Below, piece after piece: positions 30,280-42,419 of a stretch of DNA of 64,000 nucleotides. How positions within the stretch are numbered: the first letter of the stretch is position 1; each line of letters starts with the position of its first letter. Origin of the DNA: Escherichia coli (GTDB taxonomy: Bacteria; Pseudomonadota; Gammaproteobacteria; Enterobacterales; Enterobacteriaceae); the NCBI RefSeq assembly GCF_022846255.1, contig NZ_AP025682.1; one strand, 5' to 3'. The notes below the pieces were generated by a model, which made no database searches, was not told the origin of the DNA, and saw only the letters and a program-made list of their open reading frames with translations. Position numbers and translations under genes: made by a program.

Positions 30280-30774
30280 GTGAAGATTGATGCATCCCGT
30301 CGGGGCATACTCACTGGTCGCTGGCGCAAAGCCAGTAACGGTATCCGTCCGCCCTGGTCCGGTGATGAATCTCATTTTCTGACCCATTGCACCCGCTGCG
30401 ACGCCTGTATTAATGCTTGTGAAAACAACATTCTGCAACGCGGCGCGGGTGGCTATCCGAGCGTTAATTTCAAAAATAACGAGTGCAGCTTCTGTTACGC
30501 CTGCGCGCAGGCTTGCCCCGAATCGCTATTTTCTCCGCGCCACACCAGGGCCTGGGATTTGCAGTTCACCATTGGGGACGCGTGCCTGGCGTATCAGTCA
30601 GTTGAATGCCGCCGCTGTCAGGATAGCTGTGAGCCAATGGCAATTATCTTTCGCCCGACGCTCTCCGGGATCTACCAGCCGCAACTTAATAGCCAACTTT
30701 GCAACGGATGTGGAGCATGTGCAGCCAGCTGTCCGGTATCAGCCATAACTGCGGAGTATCTCCATGCACACTAA
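30280..30774 (+). CDS. napF: Ferredoxin-type protein NapF
   Basis: 164-aa ORF with multiple CxxCxxCxxxCP 4Fe-4S motifs; GTG start. Confidence 0.9.
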   Translation: MKIDASRRGILTGRWRKASNGIRPPWSGDESHFLTHCTRCDACINACENNILQRGAGGYPSVNFKNNECSFCYACAQACPESLFSPRHTRAWDLQFTIGDACLAYQSVECRRCQDSCEPMAIIFRPTLSGIYQPQLNSQLCNGCGACAASCPVSAITAEYLHAH

Positions 30775-31027
30775 CTGGCAAGTTTGCAGCCTGGTCGTGC
30801 AGGCCAAAAGCGAACGAATTTCAGACATCAGCACCCAACTGAACGCCTTTACCGGCTGTGAAGTTGCTGTCAGCGACGCGCCGAGCGGTCAGTTGATTGT
30901 GGTGGTGGAAGCAGAAGACAGCGAAACGCTGATCCAAACCATTGAGTCAGTACGCAACGTAGAGGGCGTGCTGGCGGTGTCGCTGGTTTATCACCAGCAG
31001 GAAGAGCAAGGTGAGGAAACACCATGA
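30764..31027 (+). CDS. napD: NapA chaperone NapD
   Basis: 87-aa ORF overlapping napF end and napA start. Confidence 0.9.
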
Positions 31028-33510
31028 AACTCAGTCGTCGTAGCTTTATGAAAGCTAACGCCGTTGCGGCCGCTGCGGCGGCTGCCGGTCTCAGCGTGCC
31101 GGGCGTTGCCCGCGCCGTTGTTGGTCAGCAGGAAGCCATTAAATGGGATAAAGCGCCGTGCCGTTTCTGCGGTACGGGTTGCGGCGTTCTGGTCGGAACG
31201 CAGCAGGGGCGTGTGGTGGCCTGTCAGGGCGACCCGGACGCACCGGTTAACCGTGGCCTGAACTGCATTAAGGGCTATTTCCTGCCCAAAATCATGTACG
31301 GTAAAGACCGTTTGACGCAGCCGCTGCTGCGTATGAAAAACGGTAAATATGACAAAGAAGGCGAATTTACCCCAATCACCTGGGATCAGGCCTTCGATGT
31401 GATGGAAGAGAAATTCAAAACCGCCCTGAAAGAAAAAGGGCCGGAATCGATCGGTATGTTCGGTTCTGGTCAGTGGACTATCTGGGAAGGTTATGCCGCG
31501 TCCAAGTTGTTCAAAGCGGGCTTCCGTTCGAACAACATCGACCCGAACGCGCGTCACTGTATGGCGTCGGCAGTAGTTGGCTTTATGCGTACCTTTGGTA
31601 TGGATGAGCCGATGGGCTGCTATGACGACATCGAGCAGGCTGACGCGTTTGTGCTGTGGGGCTCCAACATGGCGGAGATGCACCCGATCCTCTGGTCGCG
31701 CATCACTAACCGTCGTCTTTCTAACCAGAACGTCACCGTGGCGGTGCTTTCTACCTACCAGCATCGTAGCTTCGAGCTGGCGGATAACGGCATCATCTTT
31801 ACGCCGCAATCTGACCTGGTGATCCTGAACTATATCGCCAACTATATCATTCAAAACAATGCGATAAATCAGGACTTCTTCAGCAAACACGTTAACCTGC
31901 GCAAAGGGGCGACGGACATCGGCTACGGTTTACGTCCGACCCATCCGCTGGAAAAAGCAGCGAAGAATCCGGGTTCTGACGCCTCCGAACCGATGAGCTT
32001 TGAAGATTACAAAGCCTTCGTTGCTGAATATACGCTGGAAAAAACCGCCGAAATGACCGGCGTGCCGAAAGACCAGTTAGAACAACTGGCGCAGCTGTAT
32101 GCCGATCCGAACAAGAAAGTCATCTCCTACTGGACGATGGGCTTCAACCAGCATACCCGTGGTGTGTGGGCCAACAACCTGGTCTACAACCTGCACCTGC
32201 TGACCGGCAAAATTTCCCAGCCGGGTTGCGGTCCGTTCTCCCTGACCGGGCAGCCTTCCGCGTGTGGTACTGCGCGTGAAGTGGGCACCTTTGCTCACCG
32301 TCTGCCTGCGGACATGGTGGTGACTAACGAGAAACATCGTGATATTTGCGAGAAGAAGTGGAATATCCCGAGTGGCACCATTCCGGCGAAAATCGGTCTG
32401 CACGCGGTGGCACAAGACCGTGCGCTGAAAGACGGCAAACTGAATGTTTACTGGACCATGTGTACCAATAACATGCAGGCCGGACCGAACATTAATGAAG
32501 AGCGTATGCCGGGCTGGCGCGATCCGCGCAACTTTATCATCGTTTCCGATCCGTATCCGACGGTCAGTGCGCTGGCAGCGGACTTGATCCTGCCGACCGC
32601 AATGTGGGTAGAGAAAGAGGGCGCTTACGGTAATGCCGAACGCCGTACTCAGTTCTGGCGTCAGCAGGTACAGGCACCGGGTGAAGCAAAATCGGATCTC
32701 TGGCAGTTAGTTCAGTTCTCCCGTCGCTTCAAAACTGAAGAAGTGTGGCCGGAAGAGCTGCTGGCGAAGAAACCAGAACTGCGTGGCAAAACGCTGTACG
32801 ACGTTCTGTATGCCACTCCGGAAGTGAGCAAATTCCCGGTATCCGAACTGGCGGAAGATCAGCTGAACGATGAATCCCGCGAGCTGGGCTTCTATCTGCA
32901 AAAAGGGTTGTTCGAAGAGTACGCATGGTTTGGTCGCGGTCACGGTCACGATCTCGCGCCGTTCGATGATTACCACAAAGCACGCGGTCTGCGCTGGCCG
33001 GTGGTGAACGGTAAAGAAACGCAGTGGCGTTACAGCGAAGGTAACGACCCGTACGTGAAAGCGGGCGAAGGCTACAAGTTCTACGGTAAACCGGATGGCA
33101 AAGCGGTGATCTTCGCGCTGCCGTTCGAACCTGCGGCGGAAGCACCGGATGAAGAGTACGACCTGTGGCTCTCTACCGGACGCGTCCTGGAGCACTGGCA
33201 TACCGGCAGTATGACTCGCCGTGTACCGGAACTGCACCGCGCCTTCCCGGAAGCGGTTCTGTTTATTCACCCGCTGGATGCGAAAGCGCGCGATCTGCGC
33301 CGTGGCGACAAAGTGAAAGTGGTTTCTCGCCGTGGCGAAGTGATCTCGATTGTCGAAACGCGCGGTCGTAACCGTCCGCCGCAGGGCCTGGTGTACATGC
33401 CGTTCTTCGACGCCGCACAGCTGGTTAACAAACTGACGCTGGATGCGACCGATCCGCTCTCGAAAGAGACGGACTTCAAGAAGTGCGCGGTCAAACTGGA
33501 GAAGGTGTAA
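31024..33510 (+). CDS. napA: Periplasmic nitrate reductase catalytic subunit NapA
   Basis: 828-aa ORF; Tat signal SRRSFMKA; molybdopterin oxidoreductase with N-terminal Cys cluster. Confidence 0.95.
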
Positions 33511-40816: not shown

Positions 40817-41370
40817 AGCGCAAGGTATTGTTAATTCCGTTGATTATCTTCCTGGCGATTGCCGCGGCGCTGCTGTGGCAGCTGGCGCGTAATGCCGAAG
40901 GGGATGATCCGACCAATCTGGAATCGGCGCTCATTGGCAAGCCAGTGCCGAAGTTTCGCCTCGAATCACTGGACAATCCGGGGCAGTTTTATCAGGCGGA
41001 TGTGCTGACTCAGGGCAAACCAGTGCTGCTTAACGTCTGGGCGACCTGGTGTCCGACCTGCCGTGCGGAACATCAATATCTGAATCAGCTTTCTGCGCAG
41101 GGCATCCGCGTGGTCGGCATGAACTATAAAGACGATCGCCAGAAGGCAATCAGCTGGCTGAAAGAGCTGGGCAATCCTTACGCACTAAGCCTGTTTGATG
41201 GCGACGGCATGTTAGGACTGGATCTCGGTGTCTATGGCGCGCCAGAAACGTTCCTCATCGACGGCAACGGCATCATTCGCTATCGCCATGCGGGCGATCT
41301 CAATCCTCGCGTCTGGGAAGAAGAGATCAAGCCGCTGTGGGAGAAATACAGTAAGGAGGCCGCACAATGA
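40813..41370 (+). CDS. ccmG: Thiol:disulfide interchange protein CcmG/DsbE
   Basis: 185-aa ORF; thioredoxin motif WCPTC. Confidence 0.9.
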   Translation: MKRKVLLIPLIIFLAIAAALLWQLARNAEGDDPTNLESALIGKPVPKFRLESLDNPGQFYQADVLTQGKPVLLNVWATWCPTCRAEHQYLNQLSAQGIRVVGMNYKDDRQKAISWLKELGNPYALSLFDGDGMLGLDLGVYGAPETFLIDGNGIIRYRHAGDLNPRVWEEEIKPLWEKYSKEAAQ

Positions 41371-42419
41371 GGTTTTTATTGGGCGTGCTGATGTTGATGA
41401 TCTCCGGCTCAGCGCTGGCGACCATCGACGTGTTGCAGTTTAAGGATGAAGCGCAGGAGCAGCAGTTCCGCCAACTCACTGAAGAACTACGCTGCCCGAA
41501 ATGCCAGAACAACAGCATTGCCGATTCCAACTCGATGATTGCCACCGACCTGCGCCAGAAAGTGTATGAACTGATGCAGGAAGGTAAAAGTAAGAAAGAG
41601 ATTGTCGATTATATGGTGGCGCGTTACGGCAACTTCGTCACTTACGATCCGCCGTTAACGCCGCTGACCGTGCTGCTGTGGGTGCTTCCGGTAGTGGCTA
41701 TTGGCATTGGCGGTTGGGTCATATACGCCCGTTCGCGGCGTCGGGTACGCGTGGTGCCGGAAGCGTTTCCTGAACAAAGCGTGCCGGAAGGTAAGCGTGC
41801 CGGATATATTGTTTATCTGCCGGGTATTGTGGTGGCGTTAATTGTGGCTGGCGTCAGCTACTACCAGACTGGCAATTATCAGCAGGTGAAAATCTGGCAG
41901 CAAGCCACGGCACAGGCTCCGGCGTTGCTGGACAGGGCGCTGGATCCGAAAGCCGATCCGCTCAACGAAGAAGAGATGTCGCGCCTTGCGCTGGGGATGC
42001 GTACTCAACTGCAAAAAAATCCGGGAGATATAGAAGGCTGGATTATGTTGGGCCGCGTTGGCATGGCGCTGGGTAACGCCAGTATTGCCACCGATGCATA
42101 CGCCACTGCGTATCGCCTCGATCCGAAAAACAGCGATGCTGCACTGGGATACGCTGAAGCGTTGACACGTTCATCTGATCCCAACGACAACCGCCTCGGC
42201 GGCGAACTGCTGCGCCAGTTGGTGAGAACGGACCATAGCAATATCCGTGTGTTAAGCATGTATGCATTTAATGCCTTTGAGCAGCAACGATTTGGCGAAG
42301 CCGTTGCCGCGTGGGAGATGATGTTGAAACTCTTACCTGCCAACGATACTCGCCGTGCGGTGATCGAACGTAGTATCGCGCAGGCGATGCAACATTTGTC
42401 GCCGCAGGAGAGTAAATAA
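41367..42419 (+). CDS. ccmH: Cytochrome c heme lyase subunit CcmH
   Basis: 350-aa ORF; LRCPKC motif and C-terminal TPR-like region. Confidence 0.9.
   Translation: MRFLLGVLMLMISGSALATIDVLQFKDEAQEQQFRQLTEELRCPKCQNNSIADSNSMIATDLRQKVYELMQEGKSKKEIVDYMVARYGNFVTYDPPLTPLTVLLWVLPVVAIGIGGWVIYARSRRRVRVVPEAFPEQSVPEGKRAGYIVYLPGIVVALIVAGVSYYQTGNYQQVKIWQQATAQAPALLDRALDPKADPLNEEEMSRLALGMRTQLQKNPGDIEGWIMLGRVGMALGNASIATDAYATAYRLDPKNSDAALGYAEALTRSSDPNDNRLGGELLRQLVRTDHSNIRVLSMYAFNAFEQQRFGEAVAAWEMMLKLLPANDTRRAVIERSIAQAMQHLSPQESK

Follow-up and report, generated by a model that had tools for sequence, protein, structure and literature searches.

The closest described counterpart of the locus analyzed here is the aeg-46.5 operon of Escherichia coli K-12 MG1655 (b2208-b2194), napFDAGHBC-ccmABCDEFGH, whose 15 genes are listed in the literature as one transcription unit and whose junction distances are tabulated individually for each gene by Huber et al. 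2023 (Table S2). The stretch of DNA under study (the window) comprises 64,000 nucleotides (nt) of an E. coli genome (assembly GCF_022846255.1, contig NZ_AP025682.1), and fifteen open reading frames (ORFs) on its plus strand, at 30280-42419, make up the same operon. Genes, order, strand, lengths, start and stop codons and all 14 junction distances are those of K-12, the distances being identical to the published values; the differences amount to 242 substitutions (2.0%), 10 amino-acid replacements and a ccmH-narP spacer of 34 nt compared with 210 nt in K-12. We are highly confident that the locus is the standard E. coli operon, complete and under strong purifying selection, a reading that includes a model in which translation of its genes would be coupled in blocks. 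The operon is thus one that is already known, and it shows no departure from the known E. coli arrangement.

The identification was made from the ORF listing and by annotation transfer from E. coli strain Z1323HEC0016, the closest relative throughout this work, and from K-12 MG1655, and the gene order and coordinates agree with the annotations of both. Fourteen of the 15 proteins score above NCBIfam equivalog or subfamily curated cutoffs, and CcmH scores above the Pfam CcmH and TPR_CcmH_CycH cutoffs. A sequence-only reading of the window had named the unit as napFDAGHBC-ccmABCDEFGH on one strand, a call with which ORFs, annotation transfer and profile scores all agree, and had placed its start at 30764. 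That position is the ATG of napD; napF begins 484 nt upstream with a GTG at 30280, and the interval 30764-42419 contains 14 whole genes and only the final 11 nt of napF. Shine-Dalgarno (SD) strength, quoted for several genes below, is the anti-SD duplex energy calculated with ViennaRNA duplexfold, and its background is the set of 492 other ATG and GTG positions. The genes, with protein lengths in amino acids (aa) and profile scores against their cutoffs, are as follows.

30280-30774, plus strand: napF, ferredoxin-type protein of 164 aa, identical to the K-12 protein; GTG start as in K-12; NCBIfam equivalog TIGR00402, 248 bits against a cutoff of 102; 16 Cys and three CxxCxxCxxxC motifs.
30764-31027, plus strand: napD, chaperone binding the NapA signal peptide, 87 aa; 11-nt overlap with napF; equivalog NF007840, 165.5 bits against 113; anti-SD duplex energy -6.1 kcal/mol; single change from K-12, P30T, also found in the closest relative.
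31024-33510, plus strand: napA, catalytic molybdoenzyme subunit of 828 aa; ATGA overlap with napD; TIGR01706, 1656 bits against 930; twin-arginine (Tat) motif RRSFMK and iron-sulfur (Fe-S) motif CRFCGTGC...C; three conservative changes from K-12, with the exact protein on 792 public E. coli contigs.
33517-34212, plus strand: napG, ferredoxin subunit of 231 aa, identical to K-12; starts 6 nt past the napA stop; NF007012, 416 bits against 269; RRRFLR Tat motif and 16 Cys.
34199-35062, plus strand: napH, membrane quinol dehydrogenase ferredoxin subunit of 287 aa, identical to K-12; 14-nt overlap with napG; NF007013, 471 bits against 234; SD -9.8 kcal/mol; 13 Cys.
35059-35508, plus strand: napB, dihaem cytochrome c of 149 aa, identical to K-12; ATGA overlap with napH; NF008609, 328.5 bits against 230; CLQCH at residues 83 and 123.
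35518-36120, plus strand: napC, tetrahaem quinol dehydrogenase of 200 aa, identical to K-12; starts 9 nt after napB; NF007906, 463 bits against 349; four CxxCH at residues 57, 87, 147 and 179.
36133-36756, plus strand: ccmA, ABC ATPase of 207 aa; GTG start 12 nt after napC; NF010061, 332 bits against 195; Walker A motif; weak SD, -3.3 kcal/mol, at the 32nd percentile of background; R205G relative to K-12.
36753-37415, plus strand: ccmB, ABC permease of 220 aa; ATGA overlap with ccmA; TIGR01190, 312.7 bits against 156; R16C, present in neither K-12 nor the closest relative, with the exact protein on 213 public E. coli contigs.
37457-38194, plus strand: ccmC, haem-handling WWD protein of 245 aa, identical to K-12; starts 41 nt after ccmB, with the spacer sequence the same as in K-12; TIGR01191, 282 bits against 186; WGTWWVWD motif; weak SD, -3.0 kcal/mol, at the 41st percentile.
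38191-38400, plus strand: ccmD, 69 aa; ATGA overlap with ccmC; TIGR03141, 65 bits against 26, and Pfam CcmD; H38Y relative to K-12, also in the closest relative.
38397-38876, plus strand: ccmE, haem chaperone of 159 aa, identical to K-12; ATGA overlap with ccmD; NF009635, 322 bits against 264; H130-DEN-Y motif; SD -10.3 kcal/mol.
38873-40816, plus strand: ccmF, haem lyase of 647 aa; ATGA overlap with ccmE; TIGR00353, 1016 bits against 569; WGGWWFWD at residue 236; two changes from K-12, both C-terminal.
40813-41370, plus strand: ccmG (dsbE), thiol:disulfide oxidoreductase of 185 aa, identical to K-12; ATGA overlap with ccmF; NF011941, 422 bits against 359; CPTC motif; SD -9.5 kcal/mol.
41367-42419, plus strand: ccmH (a CcmH-CcmI fusion), 350 aa; ATGA overlap with ccmG; Pfam CcmH, 170 bits, and TPR_CcmH_CycH, 204 bits; CPKC motif; SD -12.1 kcal/mol, the strongest in the operon; V148I, present in neither K-12 nor the closest relative, with the exact protein on at least 1000 public contigs.

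Codon-level alignment to the K-12 nap-ccm operon revealed no frameshifts and no stops. In each of the 15 genes, length, start codon (GTG for napF and ccmA, ATG for the others) and stop codon are those of K-12 and no internal stop is present, and the 242 nucleotide differences fall in 12,129 coding positions, corresponding to 98.0% identity. The 10 replacements are distributed over the 15 proteins at 0-3 residues per protein (at least 98.5% identity), and the resulting ratio of nonsynonymous to synonymous change (pN/pS) of 0.014 indicates strong purifying selection on the operon. The earlier observation that haem-binding CxxCH and Fe-S motifs are preserved was borne out by the two CxxCH of NapB, the four of NapC, the CxxCxxxC...C of NapA and the Cys clusters of NapF, NapG and NapH; with the NapA twin-arginine signal, the set of Nap cofactor and export motifs is complete. 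The System I set is likewise complete, comprising the CcmA Walker A motif, the WWD motifs of CcmC and CcmF, His130 of CcmE, the CPTC of CcmG and the CPKC of CcmH. Full-length frames, the pN/pS value and the presence of all checked motifs agree with the view that this operon shows no sign of decay. Neither CcmB R16C nor CcmH V148I is read as such a sign, since the exact CcmB and CcmH proteins recur on public E. coli contigs. By megablast, 30764-42419 was matched in 5,425 of 5,426 complete E. coli genomes with a best identity of 99.6%, and 5417 of the 5426 carry at least 80% of the length of the region.

The division of labor among the products is that described for the known systems. NapA and NapB, together with the quinol-oxidizing NapC and NapGH, constitute the periplasmic nitrate reductase, with NapF and NapD as cytoplasmic maturation factors, and the Ccm proteins are those of System I cytochrome c maturation, in which CcmABCD loads haem on CcmE and releases it and CcmFGH attaches the haem. 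Judged by its genes, the strain should still be able to respire nitrate in the periplasm and to make c-type cytochromes. The locus is a healthy, conserved core-genome operon beside the decayed atoC and yejO, and the value of the present analysis is chiefly that of quality control.

How closely are these genes joined? The 14 junction distances, in gene order, are -11, -4, +6, -14, -4, +9, +12, -4, +41, -4, -4, -4, -4 and -4. Ten of these are overlaps, of which eight are 4 nt long (ATGA), one is 11 nt and one 14 nt; the remaining four are gaps of +6, +9, +12 and +41. The ten overlaps are exactly the junctions named in the sequence-only reading, which had described them as overlapping or abutting; none of them abuts, and all are true overlaps. 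Among co-directional pairs in the flanking 52 kilobases (kb), 5 of 28 overlap (Fisher p = 0.0015 against 10 of 14), a tally made by hand from the annotation of the closest relative, which lacks the insertions that the window carries there in atoC and the yejO region. Moreover, nine of the 14 junctions (eight at -4 and one at +6) lie at -8 to +6, compared with 24% of E. coli unidirectional gene pairs (Huber et al. 2023; binomial p = 0.0014). When the null sets were limited to tightly packed pairs, the overlap density gave p = 0.08-0.26. The density is high for the genome and ordinary for a compact operon encoding membrane complexes. Short intergenic distances are reported in the literature to be 4.5-fold enriched among complex subunits, and the overlaps seen here cleanly illustrate the published rule that complex-subunit genes tend to overlap by 4 nt. 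Two genes have an alternative in-frame start upstream. For napB it is an ATG at 35038, 21 nt ahead of the annotated one, and its use would change the junction from -4 to -25; for ccmC it is a TTG at 37433, 24 nt ahead of the annotated one, and its use would change the junction from +41 to +17. Both comparison annotations, that of the closest relative and that of K-12, take the shorter forms of napB (35059) and ccmC.

Analysis of the ribosome-binding sites placed the anti-SD energy of 13 of the 15 starts in the best ~7% of the background, with ccmA and ccmC as the only weak ones. Each of the ten overlapped starts has an SD in the range -5.8 to -12.1 kcal/mol located inside the upstream gene, and the weakest SDs belong to the genes behind the longest gaps, ccmA (+12) and ccmC (+41). 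In the comparison of the window with the closest relative and K-12, the zones from -20 to +6 around the starts contain 3 variable sites in 364, against an operon mean of 2.1% (P = 0.049), which hints at extra constraint at the start zones.

This anatomy makes a model of coupling in blocks plausible. A ribosome that ends translation at an overlap would likely reinitiate on the next gene by means of the SD inside the end of the upstream gene (termination-reinitiation), and such reinitiation would link the outputs of the genes within each of four blocks: napF-napD-napA, napG-napH-napB, ccmA-ccmB and ccmC-ccmD-ccmE-ccmF-ccmG-ccmH. Fresh initiation would be most likely at the gaps, above all at the +12 before ccmA and the +41 before ccmC; we consider it probable at ccmC and ccmA and uncertain at the +6 and +9 junctions. 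The distance range typical of reinitiation, -8 to +6, is exceeded at the +9, +12 and +41 junctions, and reinitiation in E. coli dropped by 80-100% when the stop codon was shifted by +38 nt (PMC10666635). Coupling at each overlap and decoupling at each gap are what the gene anatomy would suggest. The translational coupling proposed in the sequence-only reading is reasonable for the ten overlaps by analogy, because four of five native E. coli pairs with a 4-nt overlap were found to be coupled by termination-reinitiation, and removal of the SD lowered reinitiation in four of five tested pairs (Huber et al. 2019, PMC6728339).

Several considerations weigh against coupling in blocks. Tanapongpipat et al. 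reportedly described in 1998 a second, weaker promoter for ccm that lies within the nap genes, and if so the ccm genes would not be expressed solely from a 15-gene transcript. The borders of the blocks do not all coincide with the known complexes, such that CcmB and CcmC, both members of one CcmABCD complex, are split by the +41 gap, and the overlaps of -11 and -14 themselves fall outside the -8 to +6 range treated as typical of reinitiation. A native 4-nt overlap need not couple, as bioB-bioF was initiated de novo without coupling, and the occluding RNA structure that Huber et al. proposed as the enforcer of strict coupling (PMC6728339) has no predicted counterpart here. No structure occluding the internal ribosome-binding sites was predicted, in a weak test on 166-nt windows; 12 of the 15 starts, most of the overlapped ones among them, are predicted to open more readily than 80% of background positions, and the predicted opening energy of the -20 to +5 region lies under the background mean at 14 of 15 starts, with only ccmE and ccmG near or above average. 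Since no occlusion is predicted, free ribosomes could initiate independently. Finally, no open-access paper testing coupling at any nap or ccm junction was found.

What, then, might the pattern of overlaps and gaps represent? One reading holds that it is designed translational punctuation, in which four coupled blocks (napF-D-A, napG-H-B, ccmA-B and ccmC-H) would be split by re-entry points, and we entertain this as a tentative possibility that falls short of even chances. If it were true, the weak SDs of ccmA, with its GTG start, and of ccmC would step down Ccm relative to Nap, and CcmC-H relative to CcmAB, on one mRNA. The gap between ccmB and ccmC recurs in Legionella (+116) and is absent in Cupriavidus (-4), and the blocks match the complexes in part only.

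An alternative hypothesis is that the overlaps are a mere by-product of compact packing, with each gene initiated independently and no functional coupling between them, which we regard as unlikely. A good SD of its own at 13 of 15 starts, ribosome-binding regions predicted to be more open than background and an overlap density that is unexceptional against tightly packed nulls are all what such packing would produce, and the uncoupled bioB-bioF overlap supplies a precedent; however, that same work found coupling in four of the five native E. coli overlaps it tested (PMC6728339). Moreover, the published medians of -4 and -1 are kept across hundreds of species, where neutral drift would not maintain them, overlaps are present in Legionella, Xanthomonas and Cupriavidus despite less than 50% protein identity, and the junction zones vary less than the rest of the operon.

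It is very improbable that all fifteen genes form one unbroken coupling chain of 12 kb in which translation of napF sets every output down to ccmH. The genes do lie on one strand with a largest gap of 41 nt, overlaps at 10 of 14 junctions and no convincing internal terminator; however, a ccm promoter inside the nap genes is reported, as noted above, and ccmABCDEFGH works as a stand-alone expression unit on plasmids, where it serves as a cassette. Four junctions have no overlap, and the +41 before ccmC lies in the range where reinitiation fell by 80-100% (PMC10666635). The coupling across about 12 kb claimed in the sequence-only reading is therefore overstated, given the gaps of +6, +9, +12 and +41, the weak ribosome-binding sites at ccmA and ccmC, and internal ribosome-binding sites that appear unoccluded. 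The last alternative, that the locus is starting to decay like its neighbors atoC and yejO through hidden frameshifts, stops or inactivating substitutions, draws on gene loss in the vicinity (an IS4-family insertion in atoC and a disrupted yejO) and on the absence of CcmB R16C from both comparison genomes, and was rejected as refuted at the sequence level and next to impossible, since codon comparison with K-12 and the closest relative disclosed no frameshift, stop or motif loss, each of the 15 frames keeps its full length and the start and stop codons of K-12, pN/pS is 0.014 with every catalytic and cofactor motif retained, and the exact CcmB, CcmH and NapA proteins occur on hundreds of public E. 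coli contigs.

The signals that would bound the transcript are as follows, with distances in base pairs (bp).

30132-30203, plus strand: putative napF promoter and regulatory region, with a TTGAT half-site at 30132-30136 within a 14-bp Fnr-type site at 30132-30145.
30151-30166: perfect 16-bp palindrome TACCCCGATCGGGGTA, a candidate 7-2-7 NarP/NarL-type site.
30187-30192: -10-like TAATAT, with a putative transcription start near 30203.
42426-42448: predicted bidirectional intrinsic terminator GCCCGATGG-tgatg-CCATCGGGC, with an A-run before and a T-run after.

Over the ~190 nt leading up to napF, the sequence matches K-12 with 100% identity. The TTGAT site and the TACCCCGATCGGGGTA palindrome, which we take to be the Fnr (-64.5) and NarP/NarL (-44.5) sites of napF P1, lie 20 bp apart from centre to centre, a spacing that fits the positions -64.5 and -44.5 that Darwin and Stewart are said to have given for Fnr and NarP at this promoter. 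A simple sigma-70 scan gave no plus-strand promoter match at the napF region, as expected for an activator-dependent promoter, and a consensus scan gave no internal plus-strand promoter, a result that is uninformative for the reported weak ccm promoter. Scanning for internal terminators returned 22 terminator-like matches, compared with 15.9 ± 4.0 in shuffles, none of them convincing. The best match of the terminator scan is the hairpin at 42426-42448, with 9 pairs of which 7 are G-C. The RNA fold of 42417-42460 has an energy of -26.2 kcal/mol (z = -7.2), which none of 200 shuffles equaled, and the hairpin fills the 34-nt spacer (42420-42453) between ccmH and the convergent narP of the minus strand, such that the two genes share it as a predicted bidirectional terminator. 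Transcription would start at the Fnr- and NarP-dependent napF promoter near 30203 and end at the hairpin after ccmH, and from the identity with K-12 we infer a single 15-gene transcript. The 210-nt ccmH-narP spacer of K-12 has this hairpin twice, on either side of a 176-nt REP-like insert; on the K-12 lineage, the terminator was apparently either the target of the repeat element's insertion or duplicated by it.

Several further observations concern the operon itself. Divergence from K-12 is uneven, with 3 differences in 759 nt of napF plus napD, 59 in 2487 of napA and 15 in 480 of ccmE; relative to the closest relative, 36 of the 42 per-gene differences are in napA, ccmA, ccmG and ccmH, 18 of these in ccmH. 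The pattern across 30280-42419 looks like a recombination mosaic. The WWD-coding stretch of ccmF at 39545-39655 (codons ~225-261) is 85% identical over 112 nt to K-12 nrfE and also matches nrfE-like genes on a few plasmids. A second genomic copy, suggested by a megablast median of two places per genome, was rejected, the extra place in the ccm half being this 112-nt nrfE stretch. The two longest antisense ORFs, on the minus strand at 30991-31890 in napA (299 aa) and at 39565-40314 in ccmF (249 aa), had no NCBIfam match and were likewise set aside; they are probably chance frames opposite biased coding sequence. A search of 29000-44000 for known RNA families yielded only a REP-type naRNA4 match outside the operon and below the gathering score, namely the element at 29259-29357 between mqo and eco (Rfam RF02564, 57.3 bits against a gathering score of 59.5).

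The operon lies between eco/yojO and narP; mqo-eco-yojO precede it, and it is followed by narP, a yejO remnant and tRNA-Pro. Compared with the closest relative, atoC carries an insertion of ~1.43 kb at 9816-11249, bounded by 22-nt imperfect terminal inverted repeats (9816-9837 and 11228-11249) and containing a minus-strand ORF of 448 aa that matches Pfam Nterm_IS4 and DDE_Tnp_1; the repeats and these matches indicate that atoC is disrupted by an IS4-family element. Downstream of narP, at 43133-46012, the yejO autotransporter is fragmented into ORFs of 85 aa, 67 aa and then 759 aa (43733-46012), and the region holds ~1.15 kb and 0.63 kb of DNA (43823-44976 and 45351-45982) beyond that of the closest relative, whose yejO is annotated as a pseudogene with an internal stop. 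The alkB gene at 25001-25651 is intact here (216 aa) and has one base in common with the ada stop (a -1 overlap), and in the closest relative it is annotated as frameshifted.

Comparison with other systems places the junctions of this operon among described ones. The E. coli pairs hyfH-hyfI, astD-astB, ydbH-ynbE and menD-menH (Huber et al. 2019, 2023), which are coupled, have the same short overlap and an SD in the upstream gene; these pairs were reporter-tested and an occluding structure was proposed for them, whereas for nap and ccm coupling is a proposal from anatomy and no such structure is apparent. Within E. coli, the nrfEFG genes, of which nrfE is a ccmF paralogue, overlap by -8 (nrfE/nrfF) and -4 (nrfF/nrfG), but they belong to another locus, one devoted to the CxxCK haem of NrfA, and are no part of the nap-ccm operon. 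Across 1,695 species, with 135-507 pairs for each Nap or Ccm junction, the published median distances are -4 for NapD-NapA, -4 for CcmA-B, -1 for CcmC-D, -4 for CcmD-E, -1 for CcmE-F, -4 for CcmF-G, -4 for CcmG-H and +11 for NapB-C (Huber et al. 2023).

Our own conservation check covered four plasmid-borne loci found via CcmE, three of which have conserved ccm clusters with a CcmE identity of 44-49%; around the fourth, a Deinococcus CcmE match, no conserved cluster was found. The distances in the Legionella adelaidensis ccm cluster are -4, +116, -4, -4, +1, -8, -8 and -4, and those of Xanthomonas sacchari, from ccmC onward, are -4, -4, +174, -4, -4 and +4. The third cluster, napEDABC-ccmABCDEFGHI of Cupriavidus necator H16 on megaplasmid pHG1 (locus L008, 1469-12699), likewise links nap and ccm on one strand, with a napD/napA overlap of -20 and overlaps of -4 or -8 at every junction from ccmA through ccmI. 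It differs from the present operon in that napE is present and napF, napG and napH are absent, ccmH and ccmI are not fused, the identity of CcmE is only 44%, the ccmB/ccmC distance is -4 instead of +41, and longer gaps of +31, +21 and +75 occur around napB, napC and ccmA. Because this linked cluster resides on a beta-proteobacterial megaplasmid, the linkage of nap and ccm is not peculiar to enterobacteria. The overlap architecture seen in the window is old, widespread and already described.

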